Part shown: piece by piece, positions 34,931 to 42,659 of the stretch
Layout of the letters: each line of letters opens with the position of its first letter
Numbering within the stretch: the first letter of the stretch is position 1
Assembly: GCA_905188025.1 (NCBI GenBank)
Contig: CAJJKI010000002.1
Span: 78,181-142,180 of the forward strand
Direction: 5' to 3'
Length of the DNA: 64,000 nucleotides
Source: an uncultured Eubacteriales bacterium
GTDB lineage: Bacteria > Bacillota_I > Bacilli_A > RF39 > UBA660
Program-made: the position numbers and the translations under genes
Notes under the pieces: model-generated
Databases searched by the model: none
What the model was told of the DNA's origin: nothing
The model's input: only the letters and a program-made list of their open reading frames with translations

Positions 34931-35959
34931 TCAATCTCCTAGGAGAACTTTGATGGTTGAATTTATAGGGATAATGGTATTTGGACTTGGTGATATGGCT
35001 TTTATGATGGTACCAGTACCGGCATAGTTTACAGTAAAGCTTTTTAGTTCTTTTTTAGCGCTGTCAAGTGGCATGTTAATAACGTTAGGGACAGTAGCAT
35101 ATTTAGTGTCATACCAATTATAAGTTTTTTCTAGGGTGTAATCTGACTTTGGTATTTGTAATTTATCAATGATATCTATCATGATATTTTTAGCGATAGG
35201 GGCTGAGATAGTTCCTCCATATTGGGTTACGCCTTTAGGATTATCTACGGCTACATATACGACGGCTTGGGGGTTATCGGCAGGGAGAAATCCAATGAAT
35301 GATAGGATATAGTTGCCTGATAGATAATGGCCATCTTTTACTTTTTGAGCAGTACCAGTTTTTCCTCCAACACGATATCCTTCGATATAAGCATTTCTTC
35401 CAGTACCATAGGCTACAACGGTTTCTAGGGTCATACGGACAGTTTGGCTGCTTTCATTTGAGATGACTTTTCTAACTATTTGTGGTTTATTTTCTTTGAT
35501 TATTTCATTGGTATTTGGTTCGATGATTCTTTTTACGACATATGGCTTATATAAAGTTCCTCCATTAATGGCAGCGGATACGGCAGTGATTTGTTGTATT
35601 GCGCTAACACTTATTCCTTGACCAAAAGCAGTAGTGGCTAGTTCTACAGGGCCAACATTTTTTAGATTAAAGAGAATACCTGATGATTCACCATTTAGAT
35701 CGATACCAGTTTTTTTACCAAAACCAAAGTTATTGATATATTTGAATAATCTTTCTTTACCTAATTTATTACCTAATGATACAAAGCCTGGGTTGCAAGA
35801 GTTTTGGACTACTTGTAAATATGTTTGGGTACCATGCCCTCCGTGACGCCAACATTTGATACGAGCTCCATCTACGTTGATACTACCACTATCATGGAAG
35901 GTATCATTTAATAAATCAACAGTTTTTTCTTCAACAGATGAAGCTAGGGTGATTATTTT
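34931..35959 (-). pseudogene. class B penicillin-binding protein (SpoVD/FtsI-like), C-terminal segment of a split gene
   Basis: Uninterrupted open frame of 342 codons with no start codon. It begins K-IITLASSVEEK and contains QNSCNPGF (SxN), GGKTGTAQ (KTG) and a C-terminal PASTA-like domain. The ORF track shows only its last 167 aa, from an internal Met. Confidence 0.9.
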
Positions 35960-35971
35960 GAAAATAACCTC
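35946..35971. other. left element/host junction (attL-type site)
   Basis: AGGGTGATTATT-TT-GAAAATAACCTC. Host PBP sequence matches up to 35959. The arms share a GGT.ATT core as an imperfect dyad. Confidence 0.7.
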
Positions 35972-35994
35972 CGAAAACGATACCTAAATAAAGT

Positions 35995-36025
35995 AAAAAA
36001 GACTAGATTACCATATAACCTAGTC
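35995..36025 (-). terminator. weak intrinsic terminator after the recombinase gene
   Basis: On the minus strand, GACTAG-13 nt-CTAGTC followed by TTTTTT. The stem overlaps the recombinase stop codon. Confidence 0.45.
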
Positions 36026-37750
36026 AATGTCACAACTTAAGTATATATTAATTTTAAAACTATTTCTTTGGAAATCAGATCTTCCTAGATCTAATGTTTC
36101 AACTTCTTTACTAAATATTGGCGAGTATTTATCATCATCTATATGTCTAGCACATTTTCCAGTAGGAATTGGTTTTTTCAATAAATTCAGATAAATTTTT
36201 AACATTAATTTATGTCTATCATTGTCCTCCTTATAGACTATAATTTCCTCCAAAAACTTATCTACAAATTCACTAACATTATTTTTATAATCAACTTGCT
36301 TTTTAATAGCATCTTCAATAATATTGATATTACCAAAACTATCAGACATAATCTTTCTTTCTTGTTCTATTTTTCCAATCCTTATATTTAAAGATGATAT
36401 ATCTTCATTATATTTATCATTTCTTTCTTTAAATTCTAGATTATTAATACTACCATCAATATTCAATTCTAATAACTTTTCTTTTTTTGTTTCAATAGTT
36501 TTGATTTCTTTTTTTAATTTTGAAATTTCAAATTGATAATTGTTATCTTTTTTTAAATTAGAATAATAATCTAACATTTCTTTTATAATTTCATTTTTAT
36601 TATTAAATACTTGTTCCATAATAATTACAAAAATATTATTCAAGTCCATTTCTGCAATTATTGGACTTTCACAAGCATCTAGTCTATATTTTACATAATT
36701 ACCACAAGCCCATCTAGGCTTCGTTTGTTTTCTTTTGCTTGACATTCTCTGGTAAGAAACATTGTGTTCACTACAAAATATTTTTGTGGTATAACAATAT
36801 TTTCTTTCGGCTCTTTTGGCATTGCCATTACTTGCTTTCATTAGTGTACTTCTGCTATCTAATATCTCATTTACACGATTCCATAATTCTTCACTAATTA
36901 TGGCTGGTATTGATTCATCTTTATATATTACTTGTTCTTCTATTGGTATATAAACTCTTTGTTTAGTTCTGTAATCAATAATTTCAGTAGTATGTCCACG
37001 ATAAAAACCTTTATATTTAGGATTCTGTATAATTCTTTTTAATGTATCCTTATCATAAATATTTCCTTTATAATTATTTATACCTTGCCTGTGTAATTCC
37101 ATTGCTAATTTATAAAACCCATATTTACCAGTAGCATATAATTCAAAAATTTTTCTTATTTTTTTTGCTTCTTCTTCTACAATTACTAATTTAGCATCAT
37201 CTTTTTTATAACCAGTAATTATATTAGAACCTAAAACTCTACCTTTTTTTATTGCTTCTTTGTGTCCCCATTTAACACGAGAAGAAAGTCTTTTGACTTC
37301 TTCTTGAGCAACACTTCCCATCATATTAAGTATAAATTCAGAGTTAGGATCATAAGTATTTATTCCATTTGATTGAAAATATACACCAACATCATTAGCA
37401 AGTAATTCTTGTGTATATTTGATACTATCAGATAAATTTCTAGAAAATCTAGAAACTTCTTTTGTAACTATTAAATCAAAATAGCCAGATTTAGCATCAT
37501 CAATCATTTGTAAAAATTTTTTTCTTCGTTTAACAGTGCTACCACTAATACCTTCATCTATGTAACCATTAACATAAGTCCAATTTTTATTTGACTTTAT
37601 AAAATTTTCAAAAAAAGATATTTGATTATCTAAAGAGTTTAATTGTTCATCACTTTCAGTAGAAACACGGGCATAAAAAGTAACTCTTAAAGGTAGTTCG
37701 GCAATATTTTTGCCTTTTAAGATTTCTTCTCTGACTTTATAGAATCTCAT
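36020..37750 (-). CDS. large serine recombinase (SpoIVCA/CisA/TndX class)
   Basis: Resolvase catalytic domain (VTFYARVSTESDEQ..SLDNQ, TKEVSRFSRN), a recombinase domain, a Cys-containing zinc-ribbon-like region (CSEHNV...WACGNY) and a long coiled-coil. GGAGGTAG SD. Confidence 0.95.
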   Translation of the reverse strand: MRFYKVREEILKGKNIAELPLRVTFYARVSTESDEQLNSLDNQISFFENFIKSNKNWTYVNGYIDEGISGSTVKRRKKFLQMIDDAKSGYFDLIVTKEVSRFSRNLSDSIKYTQELLANDVGVYFQSNGINTYDPNSEFILNMMGSVAQEEVKRLSSRVKWGHKEAIKKGRVLGSNIITGYKKDDAKLVIVEEEAKKIRKIFELYATGKYGFYKLAMELHRQGINNYKGNIYDKDTLKRIIQNPKYKGFYRGHTTEIIDYRTKQRVYIPIEEQVIYKDESIPAIISEELWNRVNEILDSRSTLMKASNGNAKRAERKYCYTTKIFCSEHNVSYQRMSSKRKQTKPRWACGNYVKYRLDACESPIIAEMDLNNIFVIIMEQVFNNKNEIIKEMLDYYSNLKKDNNYQFEISKLKKEIKTIETKKEKLLELNIDGSINNLEFKERNDKYNEDISSLNIRIGKIEQERKIMSDSFGNINIIEDAIKKQVDYKNNVSEFVDKFLEEIIVYKEDNDRHKLMLKIYLNLLKKPIPTGKCARHIDDDKYSPIFSKEVETLDLGRSDFQRNSFKINIYLSCDID

Positions 37751-37761
37751 AATCTACCTCC

Positions 37762-41458: not shown

Positions 41459-41521
41459 ACTTATTTATCACATCCAATATAAATATTTAATCAAGATGAT
41501 TTAAAACGTTTATTTGGAGGT

Positions 41522-41550
41522 AGTATACAATTTATATACAATTTTGTCAA
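41522..41550 (-). promoter_or_regulatory. near-consensus sigma-A promoter of the cargo operon
   Basis: On the minus strand, TTGACA, 17 nt spacer, TATACT. The spacer and -10 contain the direct repeat ATTGTATA twice. It lies about 60 nt upstream of the first cargo ATG. Confidence 0.55.
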
Positions 41551-41766
41551 TATGTATTTTCCTTTAAAAAAAATTGGAATTTTCATTTTTACTATAAAAA
41601 CAATAAATCTAAAAAAGAAAAAACTCCATTAAAAACGAAGTTTAGTCTAAAAAATTATATTAAAAAAAGAAGTGTAACAGGTTTAATCTTTATTAAAAAC
41701 ATTTAATGAAAAATCAAACAAGTATGTATGGTTTATAGAAATTAACATTTAAATATATTGCTTTCG

Positions 41767-41792
41767 GGTAGTACAACATTAAAGGTACTACC
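41767..41792. other. right element/host junction (attR-type site)
   Basis: GGTAGTAC-AACA-TT-AAAG-GTACTACC. An 8-bp perfect inverted repeat is centred exactly on the TT shared with the left junction. Confidence 0.75.
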
Positions 41793-42659
41793 GGGCTCAT
41801 AAGTTGCCCATATAGCATGATTTCTATTAATAGTTTCAACACTGTAATTTTGATAGTTAGTAGGAGAGAAGTCTGGTTTGGATGAGATGGCTAATATTTC
41901 TCCGTTATTAGGATTCATTACGATAGCCCAAGCTCCATCAGCATTATATTTTTGCATAGCATTATTTAATTCTCTTTCTACTGAGGCTTGGATATCATAA
42001 TCGATAGTTAAATATATATCCATTCCGTTAGTGGGTTCTTCATAGACGCTACTTTTATCTAGTTTATTTCCTTTTGCATCAGAAAAATATTTGATAGCAC
42101 CACTTTTACCAGTTAGATATTCATCATACTTTAATTCTAGTCCTGAGAGGCCTTGATTATCAATACCTACATAACCTATAGTATGTGATAAGAAAGTATC
42201 ATATGGATAGGTTCTTTTTCCTTCTTTTAAGAGATAGACTCCTTCATAATTTAGATCATTTATTTTATCTGCTATATCAAAAGATAGTTGACGACCTTCA
42301 GGATGGATTATTTCTACAGATGATGATTTATTGACATGTTCACTAATAGCGGTTTCATTAACATTTAATATTTTAGCTAAATCTTTGATGACATCTTCTT
42401 TATTTTTTATTTGATTGGGTACTACTACTAAAGATACGGTAGTTATATTATCAGCAATAGTAACATTATCATTAGTAAGAATACGACCACGATTAGCTCC
42501 AATTACTAAATTTCTACTCCATAAATTATTAGCATAGTCAGATAACTTGTTATAATCAATTACTTGGATATAGAATACTTTACCAATAATTATAATGAAA
42601 CAAAATATTATTATTAATAAGATTATTTTTATTCTTTTATGAATTTGTTTATTAAACAT
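41781..42659 (-). pseudogene. class B penicillin-binding protein (SpoVD/FtsI-like), N-terminal segment of a split gene
   Basis: TM anchor, PBP dimerisation domain (RGRILTNDN, YPYDTFLSHTIGYVGIDNQGLSGLE) and the start of the transpeptidase domain ending YEPGSTF. The ORF then runs 12 element-derived codons (NVVLPESNIFKC) to the stop at 41742. Confidence 0.9.

Follow-up and report, generated by a model that had tools for sequence, protein, structure and literature searches.

A recombinase-encoding integrative island splits a spoVD-type gene within its active-site motif in an uncultured gut bacterium

The stretch analysed here (hereafter the window) comprises 64,000 nucleotides of contig CAJJKI010000002.1, from an uncultured Eubacteriales bacterium. 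On its minus strand lies a gene for a class-B penicillin-binding protein (PBP) of the SpoVD type, split within the codons of its catalytic SxxK motif by an element that encodes a large serine recombinase (LSR). According to the listing of open reading frames (ORFs) and their translation, the minus-strand ORF 42659..41742 consists of 293 PBP codons, the last of which encode ...NHAIWATYEPGSTF (i.e. ...YEPGSTF), followed by 12 foreign codons, NVVLPESNIFKC, and a stop. Further along the same strand, a frame without a start codon, 35959..34931, begins with the residues KIITLASSVEEK and spans 342 codons. The two gene fragments, and the attachment (att) sites between them, are as follows:

41781..42659, minus strand: 5′ fragment of the spoVD-type class-B PBP gene, codons 1–293, with a transmembrane (TM) anchor, PBP_dimer domain and start of the transpeptidase domain; ends in G-S-T-F, with the ORF stop at 41742
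41750..41810, minus strand: attL, coding strand ...GGTAGTACCTTT[AA]TGTTGTACTACCCGAAAGC..., crossover AA at 41780-41779, from comparison of attL, attR and the uninterrupted allele of contig L001
35930..35990, minus strand: attR, coding strand ...CGTTTTCGGAGGTTATTTTC[AA]AATAATCACCCTAGC..., crossover AA at 35959-35958
34931..35959, minus strand: 3′ fragment of the spoVD-type gene, codons 294–635, starting at K294 of the SxxK motif, with SCN, KTGT and PASTA; no start codon or signal sequence of its own

The break point lies between F293 and K294 of the S-T-F-K motif. The predicted catalytic residues Ser291 and Lys294 are placed on separate gene fragments by the insertion, and neither fragment is predicted to be able to yield an exported transpeptidase. 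Complementation between two separately made halves was considered and rejected, as the 3′ fragment possesses neither a start codon nor an export signal. When joined, the fragments encode a 635-residue protein with one unbroken Pfam Transpeptidase match (residues 245–553, profile positions 3–298 of 299), flanked by PBP_dimer and PASTA matches. This protein is identical at 634 of 635 positions, over 100% of its length, to a database protein (P0001) encoded by an uninterrupted gene on contig L001, and the 5′ fragment is 100% identical to residues 1–293 of the latter. Because the joined protein gives a single full-length match to an intact allele, the halves are parts of a single gene rather than of two paralogs. 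The initial annotation, made from the sequence alone, had described a PBP frame ending inside SxxK with 12 unrelated codons and a stop, a start-less downstream frame with SCN, KTGT and a PASTA-like domain, and their union into an undecayed 635-residue PBP. All of this agrees with the translations and the Pfam match: both halves are free of stops, and the joined coding sequences of the window and of two related loci (L029 and L002) are each exactly 635 codons long.

The uninterrupted allele that the initial annotation suggested seeking in relatives was found in the nearly identical strain of L001 (synonymous divergence, dS, of 0.015 to the window), with the junction exactly as predicted. There, the DNA at the site reads GGTAGTACCTTTAAAATAATCACC, and the empty site (attB) is GAGCCCGGTAGTACCTTTAAAATAATCACCCTAGC. 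The left junction in the window is ...ACCTTT-AA-TGTTGTACTACCCGAAAGC and the right junction ...CGTTTTCGGAGGTTATTTTC-AA-AATAATCACC, so that only the dinucleotide AA is common to attB, attL and attR at the point of exchange. The element thus extends from 35960 to 41780, or 5,821 bp with one AA copy counted, and the reconstructed attP, CGTTTTCGGAGGTTATTTTCAATGTTGTACTACCCGAAAGC, carries outer inverted repeats TATCG(T/C)TTTCGGG on both arms. A 2-bp AA crossover with inverted attP arms marks the insertion as the predicted product of an LSR-type enzyme. Since the crossover is an exact AA, recombination between attL and attR would restore the 635-codon gene perfectly and release a circle bearing attP; at the sequence level, the insertion is perfectly reversible.

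The data are of metagenome type, and many of the related records are metagenome-assembled genomes (MAGs), which could raise the concern of a chimeric contig. However, the interrupted window allele and its junctions are 100% identical in at least 10 independent samples or assemblies, produced by different assemblers, and the same att architecture recurs in dozens of diverged loci, making an assembly artefact exceedingly improbable.

A third form of the allele was seen once, in a strain 97.9–99.5% identical to the window (ENA ERZ28660809 scaffold_1627). Its PBP gene (8001-9845, corresponding to window positions ~35932-41815) is without the element and is also missing exactly 63 nt centred on the att site, with AIWATYEPGSTFKIITLASSV removed. 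The product (P0002) is an in-frame PBP of 614 residues without the catalytic serine. This could be a scar of aberrant excision, a deletion abolishing the landing site, or an assembly artefact.

The joined protein scores 708.4 bits with the SpoVD equivalog model TIGR02214 (cut-off 688), the next NCBIfam family being pbp2_mrdA, at 334.9 bits and below its cut-off. The SpoVD architecture is complete, with the TM anchor, PBP_dimer, a transpeptidase domain with its SxxK, SxN and KTG motifs, and a single PASTA domain. On its 3′ side the gene adjoins the following:

34906..34934, minus strand: promoter with perfect sigma-70 consensus, TTGACA-17-TATAAT (12/12 positions), overlapping the end of spoVD, 5′ of mraY; a consensus match only
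32714..34850, minus strand: mraY (33858-34850) and a SEDS gene (32714-33805), 3′ of the split gene

The order pbp-mraY-SEDS, as first proposed, is borne out by the ORF listing. The SEDS protein reaches 445.7 bits with the spoVE model, 3 bits short of the cut-off (448.8), and passes the ftsW model (402.8 bits, cut-off 337.5). Since a consensus promoter stands in front of mraY, the mraY and SEDS genes need not depend on transcription through the split gene. In Peribacillus glennii a pair of tandem PBPs precedes mraY and a SEDS gene, similar to the pbpB-spoVD...mraY...spoVE arrangement of B. subtilis, and the joined PBP is closer to the second of these (43–54% identity) than to the first (33–44%). 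In three related loci (L062, L063 and L071), a second class-B PBP of 710 residues is encoded directly 5′ of the split gene, which is therefore an extra, non-division paralog there. The conserved motif 5′ of spoVD fits both a sigma-A-like TAnAnT and a sigma-E -10 element.

Between the spoVD start and a 242-residue ORF lies a small-RNA-like unit of ~105 nt (window 42703-42843, minus strand), with its own TTGACA-17-TAGTAT promoter, a strong terminator (GGGAGGCTG...CAGCCTC and a T-run), and C-rich and G-rich tracts. In nine species of the genus this unit hardly changes, whereas the intergenic DNA on either side of it does. Its Rfam matches are sub-threshold only (EF3314_EF3315, 18.5 bits; RsaE/RoxS, 18.4 bits), and no match at gathering thresholds was obtained with Rfam over the whole window.

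All the genes of the element point the same way as the PBP gene. From its left end, they and their putative control regions are:

41522..41550, minus strand: sigma-70-like promoter TTGACA-17-TATACT (11/12 positions), left end of the element, 5′ of the cargo genes; a consensus match only
40805..41458, minus strand: cargo ORF, 217 residues, no family match; conserved in L029, L051, L053, L068 and L069
39528..40817, minus strand: cargo, family-2 (GT2) glycosyltransferase-like membrane protein, 429 residues (Pfam Glyco_trans_2_3, 28.8 bits)
38925..39518, minus strand: cargo, P-loop kinase similar to dTMP/deoxynucleoside kinases, 197 residues (Thymidylate_kin 31.6 bits, dNK 26.7 bits; phrog_761)
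38402..38920, minus strand: cargo, histidine-phosphatase superfamily protein, 172 residues (His_Phos_1, 64.8 bits)
38008..38418, minus strand: cargo ORF, 136 residues (124 in other gene calls), no family match in profile searches; from the ORF listing
37927..37951, minus strand: conserved control region 5′ of s52, with the motif CATACACT and a hairpin ACACTTCC-ATTA-GTGGAGGTGT with a T-run; contains the ribosome-binding site (RBS)
37762..37920, minus strand: s52, two-helix protein of 52 residues, 11 nt 5′ of the recombinase gene; candidate recombination directionality factor or partner
36020..37750, minus strand: LSR, 576 residues (Pfam Resolvase, Recombinase, Zn_ribbon_recom; phrog_95 integrase, 361 bits)
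36001..36025, minus strand: intrinsic-terminator-like hairpin, 11-bp stem then TTTTTT, overlapping the recombinase stop codon

The length of the recombinase, 576 residues, fits the large serine recombinase family, and its Resolvase (117 bits) and Recombinase (69.6 bits) domains pass the Pfam thresholds; the Zn_ribbon_recom match is weak (24.3 bits, just under the 25.3 cut-off). In its N-terminal resolvase-type catalytic domain, which has the nucleophilic serine, the YARVSTES segment aligns with YCRVSTDS of PDB 3g13. The closest solved catalytic domains are 3g13 (E = 3e-37), from a conjugative-transposon recombinase, and that of TnpX (2mhc, E = 1e-5), while the best named NCBIfam matches (CcrC, CcrB and XisF, the latter at 80.6 bits) all fall far below their cut-offs. 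Of the initial assignment to the recombinase class that excises skin and SPbeta, the large serine recombinase part stands, on the Pfam evidence; the catalytic domain, however, is closest to the conjugative-transposon enzyme.

The small protein s52 is encoded in every module of the window-type recombinase (hereafter LSR1), and its exact sequence occurs on 645 contigs. An AlphaFold2 model gives a helix-loop-helix (mean pLDDT 82.5), and profile searches return a weak SHOCT match, below cut-off. I consider it a candidate directionality factor or partner of the recombinase. The sequence CATACACTTC(C/T)A..GGAGGTGTTTTT in front of it is invariant in all LSR1-family modules, even where the DNA further upstream is unrelated, and CATACACT (CATACAcT), lying with its end ~23 nt from the start of s52, is similar to the -10 element of sigma-E promoters. 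This conserved stretch could act as a -10 element, as a terminator or a hairpin that sequesters the RBS, or in both ways. I retain a sigma-E promoter here as a lead only, given the overlap with the RBS hairpin and the want of a conserved -35. A second variant of the upstream region has an extra segment of ~125 nt between the motif and s52, with a 43-codon ORF and a sigma-70-like TTGACA-17-TACCAT.

Hundreds of close relatives of the LSR are found in gut metagenomes. I surveyed the ~30 LSR1 loci with readable flanks, drawn from contigs encoding relatives, GTDB genomes and metagenome contigs, in which the recombinases are 60–97% identical to that of the window. In all of them the insertion lies at the same PBP codon, with host PBPs 54–91% identical to that of the window; the LSR1 gene ends ~60–80 nt before codon 294, and wherever the left flank is present the PBP stops after codon 293. 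The cargo is variable. The five-gene set of the window is also present in L029, L051, L053, L068 and L069, other sets occur in L003, L054 and L060, and in a minimal 3-kb form (L002, L059, L062-67) the histidine phosphatase is the sole cargo gene left. The elements of L004-L006 (LSR 70% identical) are similar to integrative and conjugative elements (ICEs), with a MobL relaxase, a VirD4/TraG-type coupling protein (T4SS-DNA_transf/TraG), an M23 peptidase and a methyltransferase. In the window element, profile searches with Pfam, NCBIfam and PHROGs revealed no relaxase, coupling-protein or mating-pair genes, so it is at most mobilizable. A defence-island character of the cargo was also considered, and PADLOC returned no meaningful matches for it.

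A different island of more than 10 kb, with unrelated attP arms, occupies the same codon in the GTDB MAG RGIG4316 (L034, 10880-20882). Among its genes are those for a type III restriction-modification system (methylase and Res helicase) and a small resolvase, together with an ORF similar to replication organisers; its integrase lies outside the DNA covered here.

Between the window and L029, dS is 0.17 for the LSR and 0.42–0.58 for the cargo, against 0.9–1.35 for host genes; between the window and L002 it is 0.19 for the LSR and 1.3–1.8 for the hosts. Element dS being far below host dS, the element moves horizontally. In L068 the cargo is 97–99% identical to that of the window within another genus, where the host PBP is 57–60% identical; sequence comparison thus shows movement of the family between genera. 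A phage origin was rejected: among PHROGs the element matches only the integrase, the kinase and one family of unknown function, no family member is present in IMG/VR, and the best identity to anything in the phage or plasmid collections is at most 40%, the best phage record (MT837325, 40% identity) being an unrelated high-GC contig. The window element is best seen as a small integrative island that is non-phage and probably mobilizable, and not as a decayed prophage remnant.

These properties bear on a plain insertional knockout, in which an ordinary integrative mobilizable element recognises a conserved stretch of spoVD, its carriers are left without SpoVD, and excision serves only for transfer. 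Carriers would survive if sporulation is dispensable or being lost in gut lineages, or if another PBP substitutes. The horizontal mobility of the element and the purifying selection on its genes (omega 0.1–0.18) favour this account, as do the relatives with MobL relaxase, VirD4/TraG-type coupling-protein and M23 peptidase genes, the diverse and modular cargo, the polymorphism of the insertion within the species, and a catalytic domain closest to a conjugative-transposon enzyme. I nonetheless regard it as unlikely, if worth serious attention, on account of the state of the interrupted genes described below.

In many loci the PBP ends a further time, after residue ~58 or ~122 of its C-terminal half, revealing two further insertion sites (the oblique marks the break in what follows). 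Site 2 is the SxN motif, with the left junction ...AACTCATGTAA/TCTTGGTGTTACTACAAGAAC and the right junction ...GTTCTGATAGTAACACCAAGCAA/CCCTGGATTT, which rejoin to ...N-S-C-N-P-G-F; its attP is a near-perfect 20-bp inverted repeat. It is used by a second recombinase, LSR2, 39% identical to that of the window, whose gene is preceded by a 78-residue ORF (L039, L062-65). Site 3, near residue 415 in ...GQG(I/V)SVTPIQ/Q..., is used by LSR3, 43–44% identical to the window LSR and preceded by a 52- or 66-residue ORF (L030, L063, L071, L080). The small ORFs before LSR2 and LSR3 are analogous to s52 and resemble it, with a hydrophobic helix, G/N-x-I-[TD]-[ED], and a second helix. In L071 and L080 both site 1 and site 3 are occupied, and the three PBP pieces rejoin, with no stop, to proteins of 634 and 637 residues that align collinearly with intact homologues and retain STFK, SCN and KTGT. 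L063 is seemingly interrupted at all three sites, the far end of the third element lying beyond the locus. The comparison of these loci establishes, in sequence, a multi-site architecture of spoVD insertion.

Islands at sites 2 and 3 (L003 11900-21700, L030 11260-21245, L063 14684-20182) carry genes for a metallo-beta-lactamase-fold protein matching Anti-Pycsar Apyc1, a KAP-type NTPase, a RelA/SpoT-like protein, acetyltransferases, a GT4-like glycosyltransferase, a Nudix protein and radical-SAM/methyltransferase genes. Roles of the islands in defence, counter-defence and surface modification are thereby suggested.

The relatives of the window are MAGs of uncultured bacteria from gut and rumen, which bear the labels Bacilli, Erysipelotrichaceae, Tenericutes or Mollicutes. 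In the sister genus represented by L016 (PBP 69% identical), the orthologous PBP gene lies directly 3′ of Peptidase_U4/SpoIIGA, pro-sigma-E-like, SpoVID-like LysM and YsxE-like genes; a SigK-like gene is found near the PBP gene in L024, and SigE- and SigG-like genes in L026. The best NCBIfam match of each sister-genus gene is the corresponding sporulation family, with only the SigK subfamily model passed. The abundant sigE loci of the clade (L041-L050) were tried as a link to the window's genus and set aside, as they belong with the sister genus of L016 (84% nucleotide identity). The initial annotation had reported several CotF-like coat genes in the window; a single Coat_F-domain ORF is found (24239-24562, 50.8 bits), and besides this and the SpoVD/SpoVE-like pair there is no recognisable sporulation gene within the 64 kb. 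By its predicted gene content, the lineage clearly has the machinery for sporulation; in the genus of the window itself, this points back to Coat_F and the SpoVD/SpoVE pair.

The Coat_F ORF opens a plus-strand group (24239-26723) that continues with a DUF3419-like ORF and tandem paralogous ORFs of 212 and 226 residues (MIYYD...), which show a kinase-like D-x-x-x-x-N/D-T-D motif and have no match among the Pfam and NCBIfam families. The group may represent a cluster of spore-coat genes. Elsewhere on the plus strand of the window (5291-5830, 42934-43662 and 12598-12993), small secreted proteins with prepilin-type or N-terminal hydrophobic leaders (MNNKGFTLIELLAVIVIL...) are encoded, one with a dockerin/EF-hand-like C-terminus; none was assigned to a family.

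The B. subtilis spoVD gene is required solely for synthesis of the spore cortex, in the mother cell as it differentiates terminally. I judge it moderately probable, by analogy with known systems, that the element is excised in the sporulating mother cell by the LSR with s52, restoring spoVD. Sequence comparison shows that the LSR inserted the element by recombination of attP with an attB within the G-S-T-F/K-I-I-T codons of the SpoVD-type gene. In the mother cell, the LSR together with s52, acting as directionality factor, would excise it, allowing SpoVD to be made for the cortex; the element would stay in the forespore chromosome. In growing cells the insertion would be harmless, with a predicted promoter for the mraY-SEDS genes and a terminator-like hairpin after the recombinase gene.

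It is in the state of the interrupted genes that this proposal and a mere loss of SpoVD part. Across ~30 independent insertions, double ones included, no PBP piece beside an intact LSR1 gene has a stop or frameshift. Decayed pieces are found only in L077 (an N-terminal fragment cut to 56 residues and a frameshifted 1–58 piece), where the recombinase is frameshifted as well. A simple knockout does not readily account for decay being confined to a locus with a broken recombinase, nor for the interrupted allele being the commoner form in its species cluster: in the 90% cluster of the PBP, calls of the C-terminal fragment (13 + 24 + more contigs) outnumber intact 635-residue calls (6 + 1). Intervening elements lie almost always in mother-cell genes (PMC6957869), and the convergence of three recombinase families on one mother-cell-type gene fits this generalisation, as the pattern of known reconstituted sporulation genes, and speaks further against a knockout. 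The dN/dS between interrupted alleles (window and L029) is 0.074, compared to 0.063–0.086 for intact pairs. I do not take this ratio as decisive proof of function while interrupted, since element dS places the insertions after host divergence.

Copies of the minimal element with a frameshifted recombinase gene are present in L075, L076, L077 and L079. In L076 the relic, accompanied by a site-2 attL and a fragment of the PBP (294-351), is found ~5 kb 5′ of a complete, intact PBP-mraY-SEDS set.

Several observations weigh against developmental excision. The element is younger than its hosts (dS of 0.17–0.19 for the LSR and 0.42–0.58 for the cargo, against 0.9–1.8 for the hosts), and the missing decay is therefore weak evidence for any single insertion. 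A degenerate 41-nt attP pattern had 0 matches in JGI metagenome contigs and IMG/VR, which says little about rare excision; the JGI contigs hold 37 LSR1 loci, yet no attP junction is matched there, a result that is also in keeping with a knockout. The putative sigma-E motif overlaps the RBS hairpin, lies in AT-rich DNA and is accompanied by no conserved -35 element, and s52 and the recombinase gene look co-transcribed, which would be unusual if s52 alone sets the direction. Most NCBIfam sporulation matches in the sister genera fall below their cut-offs. Finally, neither spo0A nor the sporulation sigma factors could be located for the genus of the window, and the same holds for a second class-B PBP; such a PBP, which the initial annotation had proposed to look for, is present in L062, L063 and L071.

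The occurrence of both alleles in nearly identical strains (dS 0.015) could also reflect a stochastic or stress-induced switch in vegetative cells, with low-frequency excision and re-integration generating spoVD+ and spoVD- subpopulations, in the manner of bet-hedging or 'active lysogeny'. A precedent exists in the C. botulinum yin element, which is excised at all growth phases (PMC10747680), and the s52-upstream variant with the sigma-70-like TTGACA-17-TACCAT would suit expression of this kind. However, carrier contigs run through attL and the element with no sign of mixed sites, 100% identical integrated copies are found in many samples, no attP was found, and germ-line loss would not maintain the element without transfer. 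I consider such a switch improbable.

Mother-cell excision of the kind preferred here would place the element among known gene-intervening elements. Several features of that class are seen in the sequence: the coding sequence of a sporulation gene is interrupted, the insertion carries its own site-specific recombinase, and precise removal would restore the ORF. As in skin, excised by SpoIVCA from sigK of B. subtilis, the LSR gene lies at one end of the element, a mother-cell sporulation gene is split, and precise excision restores its ORF. In contrast to skin, the target is spoVD, a cortex transpeptidase and not a sigma factor, there are no phage genes, the element is mobile between genera, the recombinase matches no named family above cut-off, and excision is a prediction. 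The C. difficile element skinCd encodes, besides the LSR CD1231, the small protein CD1234 (72 residues), which is under sigma-E/SpoIIID control and gives direction to recombination (PMC5025042); here, similarly, a 52-residue ORF adjoins the LSR gene. The gin element in gerE of Bacillus cereus is a 28.6-kb island with three recombinases, including GirC with the 42-residue GirX (PMC5595907). Like the present element, gin is of non-phage origin, pairs a serine recombinase with a very small protein, lies in a mother-cell gene and appears to spread horizontally without conjugation genes of its own (PMC5595907). In the present case, however, three separate one-recombinase elements can fill three sites of one gene, and the hosts are uncultured gut Bacilli.

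SPbeta in spsM (SprA/SprB), vfbin in spoVFB, vrin in spoVR and yin in yabG are further LSR-excised elements in mother-cell sporulation genes (PMC4191935, PMC5499854, PMC10747680). Those are prophages or remnants, whereas the family described here is absent from IMG/VR, at most 40% identical to phage and plasmid records, and ICE-like in some members. The LSRs of conjugative transposons, TndX (Tn5397) and TnpX (Tn4451), provide the closest solved catalytic domains (3g13, 2mhc), and LSR relatives occur in elements with relaxase and coupling-protein genes; the window element, in contrast, is without transfer genes. The heterocyst elements of cyanobacteria (in nifD, fdxN and hupL) interrupt genes required solely in cells that have differentiated terminally, and each element has a recombinase of its own; that of fdxN, XisF, is LSR-type. 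They belong to a different phylum and a different developmental programme.

The targets in the papers on known cases are sigK, spsM, spoVFB, spoVR, gerE, yabG and spoVK. Full-text searches of open-access papers and bioRxiv preprints yielded no description of an intervening element in spoVD, and nothing on serine recombinase, PBP, attB and sporulation together, in line with what the initial annotation had stated on elements in a PBP active-site codon. Of that annotation's overall interpretation, the split SpoVD-type gene, the undecayed halves, the LSR element, the empty site and the gene order are retained. The element is, in addition, an actively mobile island with ICE relatives and not a domesticated, skin-like remnant. 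It joins the skin, SPbeta and gin class with spoVD as a new target, and probably must be cut out for spores to form. More unusual is that, in related loci, several sites of one sporulation gene are occupied.

Developmental excision would add spoVD to the sporulation genes known to be put back together by DNA rearrangement (sigK, spsM, spoVFB, spoVR, gerE and yabG), as the first of them to encode a peptidoglycan synthase and the first case in an abundant uncultured gut lineage. It would also be the first sporulation gene with several independent elements in one ORF, each cutting a catalytic motif. As the attB, attP, attL and attR junction sequences are known at three sites, this is a testable system, also for how mobile elements pick 'safe' targets in terminally differentiating cells, and it offers three new recombinase/att pairs with candidate directionality factors, of possible interest to genome engineers. 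Without developmental excision, the finding is still that of a very widespread family of islands knocking out a spore-cortex PBP in gut bacteria, which would bear on sporulation loss and transmission.

In its widest form, the interpretation is that spoVD serves as a multi-site landing pad in a whole family of uncultured Bacilli of human and animal guts, where three paralogous modules of an LSR and a small helical partner target STF/K, SCN/PG and GQG..IQ/Q, and up to three unrelated islands are excised in the mother cell to rebuild the cortex PBP; I hold the chances of this to be evenly balanced. If true, it would be a counterpart to the multiply interrupted nif/hup genes of heterocysts, and spore formation, and so the host-to-host transmission of these commensals, would depend on the recombinases of mobile elements.

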